Virus record (IMG/VR): IMGVR_UViG_2740892112_000004
Location: 1 to 10,733 of that record
Origin: a virus
Lineage: Duplodnaviria; Heunggongvirae; Uroviricota; Caudoviricetes
Length of the DNA stretch: 10,733 nt
Direction: 5' to 3' (one strand)
Shown here: in pieces, positions 921-10,733 of the stretch
Layout of the letters: every line of letters begins with the position of its first letter
How positions within the stretch are numbered: the stretch's first letter is position 1
Translations under genes and position numbers: made by a program
The notes under the pieces: generated by a model
Told to the model about the DNA's origin: nothing
What the model saw: only the letters and a program-made list of their open reading frames with translations
Database searches by the model: none

Positions 921-1115
921 GTCCTTCCTGGAATTATGGCCCGTTACGGGGCGGCGACCTCGCGGTTTTTATCTGTTTATGAAAATTTTTCTGGAAAAAG
1001 CATGTCGGTACTTCTCGAACATAACTATTTGTTTTTAAATAGATACACAATAAAAAGAAACGACACGGTAATCATCTAAAATGGCGATTTATGACGCTTT
1101 CATGTCGTTTCTCAG
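921..1115 (+). other. Lambda-type cos site, copy A: cosQ-like flank, cosN (GGGCGGCGACCT at 949-960), and a cosB with R3/I1/R2/R1-like layout
   Basis: ccgttacgGGGCGGCGACCTcgcggtttttatctgtttatgaaaatttttctgg matches my recollection of the lambda cohesive-end region. R-site-like motifs: catgtcggtacttctc (1001-1016) and catgtcgtttctc (1101-1113) direct, agaaacgacacg (1055-1066) inverted, with an AT-rich IHF-like stretch between. Confidence 0.8.
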
Positions 1116-1139: not shown

Positions 1140-1682
1140 TTACTCGCCTTTCTTCTGTAGCAACTTTTCCGGTACGTTTCCGGTTGTTTCTTTCAAGTAA
1201 TCAGCCAGTATCTGTGGGAGGTTGTCGGCAACTCTGGCACTGGCATTACAGGCTTTAACCACTTCCCTTTTAAGCCTATCCAGCATGGCGGGGGTAATCT
1301 GTGGGAAGCTCCTTTGCATAGTAAGCGGGAGGCTGTCCATGATTGATGAAATCTGACTCGCCAGCTTTGAAAGCGCGTACAGGCAAAACTCAGTATCAAT
1401 CACGTCACCGCGATCGCGCTCGTTTTTAAGTTCCTGCGCCTCCGCCTGTGCTGTCAGTAATCTGATCCTGACTCGTAAGAGTTCATCATCATCAATATCG
1501 CCTTTGTCGTTTGTAAGCTGGCTAATTGCATTGTTAACCCTATTGTCTATCACGCTGGCAACATCGTAAAACGCCTCACGGCCTTTACGTTCAACGGGAG
1601 TCACTCCCCACTTGTCGAACGCTGTCGCACTTACACGGCAGCTTTTCGCCATGTTTTTTTTGTTCATCAGGTGCGATTTCAT
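1140..1682 (-). CDS. Terminase small subunit, lambda Nu1-like (175-180 aa; start could be 1682 or the Met at 1667)
   Basis: Full-length resemblance to lambda Nu1 as I recall it. N-terminal NKK..A......V.....W............G.E..YD.A.VI and central/C-terminal LTAQAEAQELKNERD ... TEFCLYALSKLASQISSIMDSLPLTMQRSFP. Similar length (Nu1 is 181 aa). No clear SD at either candidate start. Confidence 0.8.
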   Translation of the reverse strand: MKSHLMNKKNMAKSCRVSATAFDKWGVTPVERKGREAFYDVASVIDNRVNNAISQLTNDKGDIDDDELLRVRIRLLTAQAEAQELKNERDRGDVIDTEFCLYALSKLASQISSIMDSLPLTMQRSFPQITPAMLDRLKREVVKACNASARVADNLPQILADYLKETTGNVPEKLLQKKGE

Positions 1683-1789: not shown

Positions 1790-1850
1790 CTCATAAATAG
1801 CGAAAAACCGCGAGGTCGCCGCCCCGTAACGGGTCCATATGCCGGAAAGG
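1790..1850 (-). other. Lambda-type cos site, copy B (inverted relative to copy A): cosQ-like flank plus cosN (minus-strand GGGCGGCGACCT = plus 1813-1824), no recognisable R sites
   Basis: Minus strand reads tatgggtcctttccggcatatggacccgttacgGGGCGGCGACCTcgcggtttttcgctatttatga. About 85% identical to copy A over roughly 70 bp. Sequence beyond that, toward terS, diverges and lacks GTCGTTTC-type motifs. Confidence 0.75.
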
Positions 1851-4442: not shown

Positions 4443-4853
4443 TCAGAACGGAATATCATCACCGTAGGGGTCATCGTCTCCCGCTGGTGGCTGATTACCC
4501 TGTGTGCCTGTGGTTTTGCGTCTGTTCCCGCCAGGACGTGCCGCACGGGCACTGATTACGCTGTCTGCAATAACCTGATAACCCTGCCGCGTTTCCCCGT
4601 TCTGTCCGGTCCACTGGCTGACCTGCATCGTGCCGGATACGCTGGCAACGTCGCCTTTTTGATGTTTAGCCAGGAAGTCGGCCTGCTTACCAAATGCGAT
4701 GACCGATAGCCATAACGTAGCCTGCCCATCCTGCGCCTGACTACATGGCAACGATACCGCCATACGTGCCAGCGTCATTGGTGTGCCCTTGCTGGTCTGT
4801 TTTACCTGCGGGTCGTCCACCAGCCGCCCGTAAGCTGCTATCTGTGCTGTCAT
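4443..4853 (-). CDS. ssb: Single-stranded DNA-binding protein (136 aa)
   Basis: OB-fold SSB pattern with the hallmark acidic C-terminal tip DDDPYGDDIPF. GGAGAGGTGG SD. ATGA start/stop overlap with the upstream gene. Confidence 0.85.
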   Translation of the reverse strand: MTAQIAAYGRLVDDPQVKQTSKGTPMTLARMAVSLPCSQAQDGQATLWLSVIAFGKQADFLAKHQKGDVASVSGTMQVSQWTGQNGETRQGYQVIADSVISARAARPGGNRRKTTGTQGNQPPAGDDDPYGDDIPF

Positions 4854-5101
4854 GATTCCACCTCTCCGGTTTTAACGTTGATGGTTGTCACCTGTTCAGC
4901 TTCCGCAATCTCCCGCTCTGTCAGCGTGGCAAAATTTGCCGCCGTCGTGGTCATGAATGCGCTTATCAGTTCGGGATGTGCTTTCGCGTATCCTTCCCCC
5001 GCGTGGCGGTCTATCGTTCTGATTGCCACCTTTAAGGCGTGCTCTGTCATGTCTAACGCTTTATATTTTGGCTCTGTTCTGTCTCTGTGTTTTTGAGTCA
5101 T
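4850..5101 (-). CDS. Hypothetical protein, 83 aa (start at internal Met 5101 of the 4850-5233 ORF)
   Basis: GAGGTGG SD before the 5101 ATG. The N-terminal extension of the longer ORF is a translation of the iteron repeats and is probably not coding. Confidence 0.45.
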   Translation of the reverse strand: MTQKHRDRTEPKYKALDMTEHALKVAIRTIDRHAGEGYAKAHPELISAFMTTTAANFATLTEREIAEAEQVTTINVKTGEVES

Positions 5102-5102
5102 T

Positions 5103-5306
5103 TGCCCACCTCTACCCACTTTTTTCGCCCACTTTTTACGTTTTCCCACTTCGTCCAACGTGGGAAATTTGGGATTTATATCATCTTGTTTCATAGGTAT
5201 TTTTTTAGTGCCCACTTTTTGGGATATATACACGTGGGAAAGTGGGTAATTTTGTTAAAATTCCGTTAAATCACCCACCTTTCCCACTTTTAATGCCCAC
5301 TTTTTA
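5103..5306. repeat. Iteron array, putative replication origin: at least 8 direct and 3 inverted copies of (G)CCCAC(TTTTT) with AT-rich spacers
   Basis: Direct copies near 5104, 5115, 5128, 5145, 5211, 5274, 5283, 5296; inverted GTGGGAAA/GTGGGTAA near 5160, 5234, 5242. Lies immediately 3' of the helicase gene. Confidence 0.6.
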
Positions 5307-6701
5307 CAGTGGTCCTACATCATCACCGTCAATGTAGATCACGTCGTCTTTTTCCAGTTTGGCTAACCATCGTTTAAGGTGTTTTGTGTCATACCCCAGC
5401 TTTTTCATATCGTCACGTAACAGCGGGATCGTGCACTTGTCGCCGTGCTGTGTGCGTGAACGTATGCATCCCCATAGCGCGGTATGGTTTTCCGTCTTGT
5501 TGCCTGCCTCCTCGATGCGCTCCAGTTCAACGGGAGGGCGCGGCTTATCCACCACCACCAGCGACGTGATTAACTCCCCGTCAGCGTCGGTAAAAAGCTC
5601 CACCACGCGTAAGTCATATGCGGCTTCTTTGAGTTCCTCCGCGTCCTTCATTTTGGTGCATGAGATAACCAGCGCTTCGCTTCCTGCGTCCTCCCTGCGT
5701 ATCCGGTATTCAGCATCCAGCGAAGCACGAAATGCACTGGAACCGCGCGCGCCTTTCGTCTCATCCTTGCCGGAATGGTGAACCACCAGCACCGTGGCCC
5801 CTGTGCGTCGTTTCAGTTCGTCACAACCACGGATAAACGCCCCCATATCACGGGAATCATTTTCATCATTACCACCAAAGCAACGCGCCAGCGTATCCAG
5901 AATAATCATGCGAACAGGTTTACCCGTTTCCCTCTCCACCTGACGGGCAGCGATAACCATTTCATCAACATCAAGCGGGACCGCCGGAAAGATGGGACGG
6001 TTTACCAGATACAGATTTTTCACCTGCTCACCGTGCACAACCTCCCAGGCTTTTACACGACGCGGAACGCCGATACCGCCTTCACCAACCACATAGAGAA
6101 CAGCGCCATGCGCCACCCTGCGGCCTCCCCACTGACGGCCCGTGGAAACGTGACACGCCCACGAACCCGCAAGGAATGATTTATAGGAACCGCTTGCCCC
6201 GTATATGCTGCATAGCGACGATGCCGGAATAATCCCCTTTACCACGTAATCTAATTGCGTGTCGTATCCGGCAGATCCAACGCTCATCGGTAGCGTGGTT
6301 TTTCGCTGGTGGTGTTCTTCCCCTGGCTTTTTCCCCCGCTCCCGTTCCAGATATTCGCGCCAGTTCTCCCGCTTCTGGCCGTGTATCCCTTCGGGGTAAT
6401 AATTCGCATCAGTTACGCCCGCCGCCGCCAGCTTGTGCGCAATGGCATTAATATTTGATGGCCTGATGTGGCCTGCCTTGTACAGCCGGACACAATAGCG
6501 CCCCTCGTCGATGATTCTCAGGTCTGCCAGTTCATCCAGTTGATCATCAGCCAGCACAATGGGAGGCACATTATCGCCAGCCAGTCGCCCGTCCTGTTCC
6601 TGCCACTGTTTCGCATGTGCCCACGCATCACTACCCGCAAAAATGATGACTTCGGTCATCTTGTCGTAAGGCTGTTTTTTTAAGTTCGGTGCGCTTTTCA
6701 T
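5304..6701 (-). CDS. Replication initiator/helicase, RepA-like (AAA_25-type RecA-fold ATPase), 465 aa
   Basis: Walker A-like GASGSYKS, Walker B-like RMIILDTLARCF, VLVVHHSGK motif typical of RepA/DnaB-like helicases. C-terminal about 80 aa could be a DNA-binding domain (inference). AGGGG SD. ATGA overlap with the upstream ORF. Confidence 0.75.
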   Translation of the reverse strand: MKSAPNLKKQPYDKMTEVIIFAGSDAWAHAKQWQEQDGRLAGDNVPPIVLADDQLDELADLRIIDEGRYCVRLYKAGHIRPSNINAIAHKLAAAGVTDANYYPEGIHGQKRENWREYLERERGKKPGEEHHQRKTTLPMSVGSAGYDTQLDYVVKGIIPASSLCSIYGASGSYKSFLAGSWACHVSTGRQWGGRRVAHGAVLYVVGEGGIGVPRRVKAWEVVHGEQVKNLYLVNRPIFPAVPLDVDEMVIAARQVERETGKPVRMIILDTLARCFGGNDENDSRDMGAFIRGCDELKRRTGATVLVVHHSGKDETKGARGSSAFRASLDAEYRIRREDAGSEALVISCTKMKDAEELKEAAYDLRVVELFTDADGELITSLVVVDKPRPPVELERIEEAGNKTENHTALWGCIRSRTQHGDKCTIPLLRDDMKKLGYDTKHLKRWLAKLEKDDVIYIDGDDVGPL

Positions 6702-6997
6702 TTCTTGCCCCTGAATCCGTTAATCATGGTTTTCAGCTTCTGGATGTTTGCCCGTGCCCTGGCGTTGCTGGTGGGCACGTTATGCGGCGCGGTCTGTACC
6801 AGAGAAAAATCACGCCGGAACTGATAAACAGGCATCACGCAATCATATTCGTAACCTTCACGGCGGTAAGTTACGCACCGTCCCGCCACGCCCTTAATCA
6901 TTACCGTGCCGCCGTACTGGTCGCGGTAAATATCACCGCGCATAAATTTAGGGTGAGTGTTGCCACTGGCAGTTAAGCCAGAATATTTAAGTTTCAT
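6698..6997 (-). CDS. Hypothetical protein, 99 aa
   Basis: ORF translationally coupled to the helicase gene (ATGA overlap); GGAGAA SD. No family recognised. Confidence 0.5.
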   Translation of the reverse strand: MKLKYSGLTASGNTHPKFMRGDIYRDQYGGTVMIKGVAGRCVTYRREGYEYDCVMPVYQFRRDFSLVQTAPHNVPTSNARARANIQKLKTMINGFRGKK

Positions 6998-9515: not shown

Positions 9516-10733
9516 TTATTTTCTTCTGGCTACTGGTAGCGTGGTTACGTTTTCATGTGTTCCCGCCAGTATCCCTAACCGCTCCGTCCACATATCCAGC
9601 GCATTGCGTTTAGCATCCAGATAACGGGAATGATTATAAACTCGCTGCATTCCTGGCATCTGGTGGCCTGTAAGCTGCTCCACGACATGCGGATCAACGC
9701 CTAAATCGTTCAGCATGGTTGTAAAGGTGCGCCGGATGTCATGCAGTGACCAGTGAGGATGATTAAGCCTCCTGTGCGCTAATCTTCCATACTGCGATAC
9801 GCTGGCCTCCTGTTTCACTTCCCCCAGCAATAAGCCCGTGTGCCTGTTCTGCTCCACCAGCTGCGTGACGAACGGCAGGATCGCTTCCGGTATGGGCCGG
9901 AATATTGCGACCTTCGTTTTGCTGTGCTCCTTCGGAACGGTCCATAGCATTTCCGTAAAATCCCACTCCCCGATCTCCGATAACCTCAGTTCTACCGTTC
10001 TGGCTCCGAAGACAATCAGGAGGCGGATTAACGCGACGTAGTAAGGGGAGAATATTTTTTTGTCCAGTGCCTGCAATAATTCGCCAAGTTCTTTGTTACT
10101 TAAGACACGTTCGCTTATATCCGGTTTTTTCCCAACGTCCGCCACGTTCAGATCGTCCAGAACGTTGCTGATTGCATAGCGCCGCCTACGGCAGAACTTA
10201 AGCGCCTGTTTGCACGCCTGTAGCACGAATCCGGCAGTAACAGGCGTTCGCTTTGCCACCTGGTCAAAACAGGCCAGCCAGTGCCGTAGCTCGCATTTAT
10301 CCAGCGGCATAGCACCAATCTGCTGTATTACGTGATTATTAAGTCGCCTTTTCAGGGCGATATAATCCACGCGGTTTTCCTTTACGTAATACTCAAGCCA
10401 GTAGGTGAGCGCATCGCCAACCGTTACCGGCTTTAACGCTTCCTGTACGGTGTAATTAAGCTCATGACGTGGATTTTTCCCCTCTGCCAGCCATGCGCGA
10501 CACTGGGCGGCTTTTTCCCTGGCTGATTTCAGGCTCAGATCAGGATAACTTCCCAGCTTAATGCGTTCGGGTCGTGTCTCCCTTCCCGTTCCGGCCCTGT
10601 ATGTGAAATACCAGGTCAATTTCCCTGATGTTAAATATTTCACGCTCAGGTTTCCGCCATCACTATAAAACGTGTTTTTCTCCGCTGGCTTACCATGAAG
10701 TTTCCTTAGCAAGGTATCGCTCAGTTTGTTCAT
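9516..10733 (-). CDS. int: Tyrosine site-specific integrase, P4-type (405 aa)
   Basis: N-terminal arm-binding-type region (DGGNLSVKYLTSGKLTWYFTYR). Catalytic-domain pattern with conserved Arg (FGARTVELRLSE), His/Arg box (WSLHDIRRTF) and C-terminal Tyr region (RVYNHSRY). ATG is the last three bases of the window on the minus strand. Confidence 0.9.
   Translation of the reverse strand: MNKLSDTLLRKLHGKPAEKNTFYSDGGNLSVKYLTSGKLTWYFTYRAGTGRETRPERIKLGSYPDLSLKSAREKAAQCRAWLAEGKNPRHELNYTVQEALKPVTVGDALTYWLEYYVKENRVDYIALKRRLNNHVIQQIGAMPLDKCELRHWLACFDQVAKRTPVTAGFVLQACKQALKFCRRRRYAISNVLDDLNVADVGKKPDISERVLSNKELGELLQALDKKIFSPYYVALIRLLIVFGARTVELRLSEIGEWDFTEMLWTVPKEHSKTKVAIFRPIPEAILPFVTQLVEQNRHTGLLLGEVKQEASVSQYGRLAHRRLNHPHWSLHDIRRTFTTMLNDLGVDPHVVEQLTGHQMPGMQRVYNHSRYLDAKRNALDMWTERLGILAGTHENVTTLPVARRK

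Follow-up and report, generated by a model that had tools for sequence, protein, structure and literature searches.

A probable replication origin of the phage-inducible chromosomal island type beside a RepA-family helicase gene, and a helicase residue that covaries with one iteron base

The DNA analyzed here (hereafter, the window: 10,733 bp, ~11 kb, of the IMG/VR virus record IMGVR_UViG_2740892112_000004) carries all of its substantial open reading frames (ORFs) on the minus strand, and one gap between two of them is densely filled with short repeats (iterons). This 202-bp gap (5102–5303) separates the gene of a 465-aa initiator-helicase (rep; 5304–6701, minus strand) from a small conserved ORF of 83 aa (4850–5101, minus strand; PHROG 1231). 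We interpret the gap as very probably the vegetative replication origin (ori) of a phage-inducible chromosomal island (PICI), an origin of a known kind, based on an iteron array far beyond chance expectation, the identity of the element, the published layout of such origins, a conserved position and architecture among relatives, covariation between a helicase residue and an iteron base, and the prediction of a winged helix in the helicase. Over 93% of its length, the window shares 95.7% identity with the island in tqsA of Escherichia coli 042, the EcCI042 entry of Table S1 in Fillol-Salom et al. 2018 (PMC6092414). It also shows the hallmarks of Gram-negative PICIs, i.e., a terminal integrase gene (9516–10733), unidirectional genes, a rep-ori module, genes for a major capsid protein E (MCP-E), a decoration protein and a small-terminase (TerS)-like protein, and cosN-like 12-mers. 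As judged from its sequence, the element is an E. coli Gram-negative PICI and not a P4-type satellite or a plasmid.

Within 5105–5300 lie 11 copies of the core CCCAC or its complement GTGGG. On the plus strand, CCCAC starts at eight positions (5105, 5115, 5128, 5145, 5211, 5274, 5283, and 5296) and GTGGG at three (5160, 5234, and 5242), so that the eight direct and three inverted copies reported in the initial annotation proved accurate on recount in number, orientation, and boundaries. The entire window contains 23 copies of these words, 11 of them in the array. When the 202-bp stretch was shuffled with its dinucleotide composition preserved (2000 shuffles), the mean was 0.88 copies and the maximum five, compared to the 11 observed; shuffles of the whole window (1000) yielded at most five copies in any 200 bp. 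Longer words are still more confined to the array, which holds all six window copies of AAAGTGGG and seven of the eight copies of AAGTGGG. Read on the gene strand, the iteron unit is approximately (A)AAAGTGGG(N), about 9 bp long and irregularly spaced at 9–17 bp. No other iteron cluster was found in the island.

The array occupies the gap from end to end: the TAA stop codon of the helicase gene (5304–5306) overlaps the A-tract of the first iteron, and the last iteron (5105–5109) overlaps the Shine-Dalgarno sequence of the next ORF (ATG at 5099–5101, minus strand). In the direction of the genes, the stop codon is followed by three direct iterons, a 27-bp A/T-rich spacer, two inverted iterons, GTGTATATAT, one direct iteron, a 46-bp A/T-rich stretch, one inverted iteron, and four direct iterons. 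The rep-proximal set (5274–5300, minus strand) comprises direct GTGGG cores at 5296–5300, 5283–5287, and 5274–5278, spaced by 13 and 9 bp, and is followed by the first A/T-rich spacer (5247–5273; GC ~0.32–0.36). Next comes what we term the origin core (5211–5246), in which CCCAC at 5211–5215 faces GTGGG at 5234–5238, with a further GTGGG at 5242–5246, around ATATATAC (5224–5231); it is a candidate site for nucleation or melting. A central A/T-rich region (5165–5210; GC ~0.30), a candidate DNA-unwinding element, separates the six cores on the rep side (5211–5300) from the five on the far side, the latter forming the rep-distal set (5105–5164, minus strand; inverted core at 5160–5164, direct cores at 5145–5149, 5128–5132, 5115–5119, and 5105–5109).

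The A/T-rich stretches noticed in the initial annotation are real (GC 0.30–0.36 over 5150–5274), even though the evidence for a melting region is weaker than was assumed there: in a duplex-stability ranking, 5164–5210 is the fourth least stable 45-mer of the window (the centre ranks fourth to sixth). An Rfam scan of the whole window detected no RNA family, no sigma-70 promoter or intrinsic terminator was predicted in 4900–5500, and DnaA boxes (allowing one mismatch) were absent from 5102–5303 and at chance level across the window; these scans offer no alternative explanation for the repeats. Local GC skew is dominated by the strand-biased iterons and is uninformative about the direction of replication.

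The gene upstream of the array had been called RepA-like, and this assignment holds: the product matches Pfam AAA_25 (2.8e-44) and, over its full length, PHROG 2850, it has a weak match to RSF1010 RepA (1G8Y, E 0.004), and its Walker A (GASGSYKS) and Walker B (D269) motifs are invariant in an alignment of the window protein with P0003–P0118 (alignment A1). It consists of an N-terminal domain (residues 1–125), an AAA_25/RepA-family ATPase domain (~146–385), and a C-terminal domain (~391–465; 5307–5531, minus strand) that is confidently predicted to be a winged helix and is the proposed reader of the iterons. His441 (codon 5379–5381, minus strand) directly precedes helix 3, the recognition helix of the predicted fold, at its N-cap. 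AAA_25, of the RecA fold, was the sole Pfam match of the protein; homology to the motors of the D5_N/DUF5906/Pox_D5 type or of the Staphylococcus aureus pathogenicity island (SaPI) Rep was not found, and the motor is thus assigned by family to the RecA type (RepA family), not to superfamily 3 (SF3). Foldseek searches with the helicase model returned generic RecA-fold matches alone (Rad51, RadA, and KaiC) and none for the N-terminal domain, and the N- and C-terminal pieces found nothing usable in Pfam at E-values up to 10.

The helicase family is a three-part mosaic in alignment A1, in which N-terminal, ATPase-core, and C-terminal variants recombine independently; for example, P0023 combines another N-terminus with the ATPase core of the window protein, and P0082 combines another N-terminus and core with its C-terminus. 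The N-terminal 125 residues (6327–6701, minus strand), which are well modeled (predicted local distance difference test score [pLDDT] 75–91), share 64% identity with the N-terminal part of the Pri-Rep protein of EcCICFT073 (locus L163, 5242–5616), and the remainders of the two proteins are unrelated. A common N-terminal module is therefore joined to two different motors.

Helicase homologs at 50–99% identity were collected with their flanks in three samples of 80 loci each: one genome per species across Enterobacterales, IMG/VR viral contigs, and metagenome contigs. Almost all of these loci contain a dense array in the ~250 bp 3′ of the helicase stop codon, and the array keeps this position in more than 200 relatives; the repeated word varies by clade. 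It is GTGGG in the window, GTGAG in EcCI042 and Xenorhabdus, GTGCG(GC) in the Citrobacter, Kosakonia, Enterobacter, and Kluyvera types, and GTGGGG(A) in the Pantoea, Serratia, and Pectobacterium types. With at least three iteron types (GTGGG, GTGAG, and GTGCG) within the helicase family, and the unrelated TCTACC in EcCICFT073, the replicon-private specificity suggested in the initial annotation gains support. In an alignment of 59 unique origins, the G-type and A-type origins are positionally homologous, the rep-proximal iteron copies are conserved in position, and the switch from G to A involves the iteron positions together, the non-iteron elements being unchanged.

The origin core is shared just as widely. 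Among 123 unique Enterobacterales origins with clear arrays, 119 have an inward-facing iteron pair 17–26 nt apart (two more have an 11-nt gap), located at a median of 58 nt after the helicase stop codon, and 117 of those origins carry a (T)GTATA(T/C)A element inside the gap of the pair. The corresponding pair of the window, with its GTATATA element, lies at 5211–5238, and the element is retained in both the G-type and A-type alignments. The 5165–5210 stretch, on the other hand, is A-rich and conserved in the E. coli relatives and is not A/T-rich in several other genera. Given this and its fourth rank in the stability comparison, the TATATA core between the facing iterons is a candidate for the site of first melting at least as good as the 5165–5210 stretch.

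The iteron type of an origin is matched by a single position of the linked helicase. Residue 441, His in the window, lies in the motif K-X-[FLM]-x-[RK]-W-L, four residues ahead of the invariant Trp, and was compared with the fourth base of the GTG-N-G core in a first set of 147 loci with at least four cores and in a metagenome set of 63 loci. The base is G with His (48 loci in the first set, 27 in the metagenome set) and with Lys (25 and 1), A with Asn (66 and 16), and C with Ser (8 and 11) and with Gly, which was not seen in the first set and occurs in eight metagenome loci; the Gly-to-C pairing was also read directly in the Enterobacter locus L164. Not one of the 210 loci with clear arrays is discordant (0/147 and 0/63). 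The last 45 residues of the helicases of L113 and L153 differ by His versus Asn alone, and their origins carry GTGGG and GTGAG, respectively. A neighbor-joining tree of the C-terminal domain, constructed with residue 441 masked, shows 11 changes of the residue and nine of the base, always together. Among 55 unique full-length E. coli-type helicases, column 441 is the sole fully informative one (ratio of mutual information to entropy [MI/H] = 1.00; next best column 0.36), and columns 442–465, which are nearer to the array, are shuffled relative to iteron type (MI/H ≤0.42), which argues against simple hitchhiking.

The association between residue and base is thus an observed one, and a causal link between them is a hypothesis. 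In protein-DNA contacts, guanine commonly pairs with His or Lys and adenine with Asn, and the residue directly before a recognition helix is a usual base-contacting position. We lean, if narrowly, towards a code of one residue and one base pair that sets origin specificity, in which residue 441 at the N-cap would select base 4 (G by His or Lys, A by Asn, and C by Ser or Gly). Such a code may have been switched at least nine times, all ~10 iterons of the linked origin having changed together each time. The proposal in the initial annotation that the C-terminal domain of the helicase reads the repeats thereby receives strong comparative support, as far as sequence comparison and structure prediction can provide it. 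Should the code prove causal, H441N alone would be expected to retarget the helicase from GTGGG to GTGAG origins, the family would constitute a natural, programmable set of orthogonal satellite replicons, and it would offer a tractable case of a multi-copy cis site co-evolving with its reader. The code may also help to predict which co-resident satellites share an initiator. No description of a residue-to-base code was found in the literature searched.

Several relatives depart from the regular array. In the IMG/VR locus L130, the rep-proximal set, within the first ~60 bp after the stop codon, is expanded by four additional tandem repeats of the 13-bp unit AAAAGTGGGTAGT, which indicates that iteron number is not fixed. 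The stretch that separates the rep-proximal iterons from the last one is missing from the IMG/VR locus L122, apparently lost by recombination between iterons, and the helicase gene is intact. The origins of L121, L123, and L129 (IMG/VR) and of L113–L118 are hybrids: those of Asn-type helicases carry GTGAG in the left set but end the right set with one or two GTGGG iterons, and several His-type origins have a single GTGAG at the end. Constraint seems to be weakest on the outermost iterons of the rep-distal set. The Klebsiella-type loci L234, L051, and L072 encode His-type helicases with a divergent tail (...IKHFTRWLKKLVDD...) and have a looser array that repeats NTGGG alone (ATGGGG, CTGGGTA, and GTGGGT), which suggests that one more position of the core can vary too. 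Loci with fewer than four exact cores were considered as counter-examples to the residue-base pairing and rejected as such, given that they are degenerate or deleted arrays (the Klebsiella-type NTGGG repeats and the L122 deletion). The idea that co-resident islands avoid a shared iteron type (incompatibility avoidance) was likewise unsupported in a tiny sample: among IMG/VR genomes that carry two or three islands with this helicase, the type is the same in four of five (L095/L097/L099, L134/L135, L149/L150/L155, and L085/L147) and differs in one (L139/L140), so that a common initiator specificity does not seem to prevent co-residence.

Published origins of SaPIs and Gram-negative PICIs directly follow the 3′ end of rep and have an AT-rich region between their iteron sets (PMC6092414, PMC9371898). 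The gap in the window has the same organization: it directly follows the 3′ end of rep, its short iterons form two sets around an A/T-rich region, and iterons face each other near the centre (5211–5215 versus 5234–5238). The layout of a Rep gene, iterons, and AT-rich DNA cited in the initial annotation is therefore a published one; what did not stand is the P4-like "satellite and plasmid" label attached to it. The type, position, and logic of this origin are already published for PICIs and SaPIs, and the initial annotation did not recognize that both the origin and the element belong to classes already known.

We infer the following route of binding, melting, self-loading, and priming. After induction and excision of the island, the helicase-initiator would bind the ~9-bp iterons through its C-terminal winged helix, with His441, at the start of the recognition helix, reading the fourth base pair of the GTGGG core. 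The 11 sites, in two flanking arrays and a central facing pair, may concentrate the protein and promote ring assembly, by analogy with SaPI Rep. The duplex would then open at the GTATATA core and the adjacent A/T-rich stretch, and rings of the RecA-fold (RepA/DnaB-like) motor could load themselves on the single strands independently of a separate loader, for which no gene was seen. The SSB protein of the island (4443–4853, minus strand; Pfam SSB 4.2e-17), a probable accessory of the replication module, would coat the single strands, and host primase and polymerase would complete initiation.

Some observations weigh against this account. The functional test in the literature concerns EcCICFT073, whose motor and iterons are non-homologous to those of the window. 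The outer arrays have the same orientation, and a simple head-to-head double hexamer is not obviously encoded. The supposed melting region ranks fourth among the least stable stretches of the island, and in some genera it is not rich in A/T. The full-length AlphaFold2 model of the helicase is poor (pLDDT 60.7), which leaves its oligomeric state and self-loading to analogy; Pfam and Foldseek searches with the helicase pieces identified no primase, and the N-terminal domain has no assigned function. Finally, codon 441 is only ~75 bp from the array, and part of the association could be due to linkage, even though the shuffled intervening columns argue otherwise.

The iterons might instead form an operator array, at which the C-terminal domain of the helicase or another island protein controls the downstream operon (small ORF, ssb, perC, and capsid genes) at the level of read-through transcription or of translation, with replication starting elsewhere. 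The last iteron does overlap the Shine-Dalgarno sequence and the start of the next gene, the array is probably transcribed through, given that no terminator follows the helicase gene, and covariation speaks to binding specificity and not to replication. Nevertheless, 11 sites grouped in two arrays around an A/T-rich centre, together with a conserved TATATA core, make up the architecture of an origin and not of an operator, the region has no promoter-like site, the island has no second iteron cluster, and the homologous position in EcCICFT073 is needed for Rep-dependent plasmid maintenance (PMC6092414). We regard a purely regulatory array as improbable; a regulatory role could exist alongside origin function. 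A different protein as the reader of the iterons (a host factor, the DUF4222 protein encoded next to the helicase gene, or the small ORF) is slightly less probable again. It would make the His/Asn association a case of hitchhiking by a codon 75 bp away, and both the tight physical linkage of codon 441 to the array and the presence of the DUF4222 gene and the small ORF beside the module in all relatives examined are compatible with it. However, the loss of association at columns 442–465, the agreement of the His/Lys-to-G and Asn-to-A pairings with usual amino acid-base preferences, and the location of residue 441 at the recognition helix of the predicted winged helix argue against it. The small ORF in particular was rejected as the reader: its best column reaches an MI/H of 0.60, and it is 83% identical in EcCICFT073 despite unrelated iterons.

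The repeats could also serve copy-number control, handcuffing, or partition (as a centromere-like site), or be a recombination-prone tract without a role in initiation. Iteron expansion in L130 and the deletion between outer iterons in L122 do point to a recombinogenic tract, and iteron plasmids are known from textbooks to use the same sites for initiation and handcuffing. Yet the island has no partition genes, architecture and position are kept across genera with concerted change, which indicates selection on recognition by a protein, and a recombinogenic repeat leaves the concerted, residue-matched change unexplained. This was the least probable of the explanations considered, and a copy-control role is most likely an addition to initiation rather than a substitute for it. 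A packaging site was rejected, as the lambda cosN-like sequences are located elsewhere in the window.

Around the origin, the Pfam-scanned ORFs of the island encode a tyrosine integrase with an arm-binding domain, the DUF4222 protein, the AAA_25 ATPase, SSB, and a lambda gpE-type major capsid protein; PHROG matches add a gpD-type decoration protein and a small-terminase-like protein. The DUF4222 gene (6698–6997, minus strand) overlaps the start of the initiator gene, as it does in EcCICFT073 (L163, 4946–5245) and in the Enterobacter island (L164, 2181–2504), and the replication module keeps this gene as a conserved partner in all three, even with the different motor of EcCICFT073. In some relatives (H1, H5–H10, and L001 at 11690–12004), ssb is separated from the small post-origin ORF by an additional ORF of 315 bp, which lies outside the origin. 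The lambda cosN-like 12-mer GGGCGGCGACCT occurs in two exact copies of opposite orientation (949–960, plus strand; 1813–1824, minus strand; 0.05 expected by chance), which flank the small-terminase-like gene (1140–1682, minus strand). The supplement of PMC6092414 names a "CFT073 cos.1", and more than one cos may be known for such islands.

DNA similar to the helicase-ori stretch is present in 1726 of 5426 complete E. coli genomes, 588 of which cover at least 80% of the stretch; the annotation thus places an origin for a very common E. coli satellite module. In E. coli JNE132847, between phoQ and roxA (L001), the module resides in an island resembling the capsid-forming PICIs, with genes for an HK97-type capsid, a protease, a portal, a head-tail connector, an HNH protein, and both terminase subunits. 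The helicase of this island has ~100% amino-acid identity to that of the window, and all 11 GTGGG cores recur in its array. The two types of satellite exchange the replication module.

Compared to other replicons, the window shares with the classical iteron plasmids (pSC101, F, R6K, and pPS10) the reading of repeats by a winged helix beside an A/T-rich unwinding element. These plasmids, however, have tandem direct iterons of 17–22 bp, a non-helicase initiator, DnaA boxes, and loading by host DnaB/DnaC. With a unit of ~9 bp spaced at 9–17 bp, no DnaA box, and no Rep_3- or RepA_C-type gene in the scanned ORFs, the window was not classified as a plasmid oriV of this kind. The solved structure nearest to the motor domain is that of an IncQ protein, RepA of RSF1010 (1G8Y), although the match is weak (E 0.004). 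In RSF1010, which has RepB′ as its primase, a dedicated initiator, RepC, binds iterons of ~20 bp, and the helicase is devoid of a DNA-reading domain, whereas the window helicase carries its own predicted winged helix and the iterons are ~9 bp. RepC or RepB homologs were not found among the island ORFs scanned with Pfam and PHROG, and an IncQ replicon was rejected.

P4 is also an E. coli satellite, it relies on one multidomain protein that is both helicase and origin binder with a C-terminal DNA-binding domain, it has repeats in both orientations, and its crr site lies directly 3′ of the alpha gene. It differs in that alpha is a primase with a D5-like helicase and not a member of the RepA family, in its use of two cis sites (ori and crr) ~4.7 kb apart, and in its octamers. 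The initial annotation had stated that the motif differs from the P4 octamer, and the annotated P4 genome bears this out: its type-1 repeats are TGTTCACC, AAGTGGG is absent, and no iteron of the GTGGG type is present. A P4-type ori is therefore excluded.

EcCICFT073 has the same backbone as the window, with the origin located between rep and the small ORF-ssb-perC genes and two iteron sets around an A/T-rich centre. The small post-origin ORF is 83% identical between the two islands, but the Rep proteins can be aligned over residues 1–125 alone (64% identity): EcCICFT073 encodes a 584-aa Pri-Rep of the D5_N/DUF5906/Pox_D5 (SF3) type, and its iterons are TCTACC/GGTAGA. With the same neighbors and position but a different Rep and different iterons, this comparison implies that iterons follow the Rep gene and not the neighboring genes. 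As described in the text of PMC6092414, a cloned rep-ori segment of EcCICFT073 confers plasmid maintenance, and deletion of rep or ori impairs it; that text contains none of the iteron motifs and no iteron sequence for a helicase of the window type. EcCI042 has a helicase of the same family as the window, differing in its Asn allele and GTGAG iterons versus His441 and GTGGG.

SaPI Rep is both helicase and initiator, and its C-terminal winged helix recognizes iterons (PMC9371898); SaPI iterons are 6–12 penta- or hexanucleotides directly downstream of the rep ORF, with an AT-rich centre between facing iterons (Qiao et al. 2022; Ubeda et al. 2007 as cited in PMC9371898). The window resembles this system in its 11 iterons, inward-facing pair, and predicted C-terminal winged helix. 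It differs in host phylum, in iteron sequence, and in the motor, given that SaPI Reps are AAA+/SF3-type 3′-5′ helicases and the window protein has the RecA-fold AAA_25 domain; inferred from its family, the polarity of the window motor is probably opposite to that of SaPI Rep. Relative to the literature searched, two points are new: the use of a RecA/RepA-type motor, with an N-terminus shared with Pri-Rep, in the winged-helix-plus-iteron design, and the prediction of an iteron base from one residue without exception, every iteron having changed in concert. The PICI/SaPI origin design is here found on a motor that is non-homologous to the SF3 motors of the studied cases, which supports the idea that winged helix and origin travel as a module on interchangeable motors.

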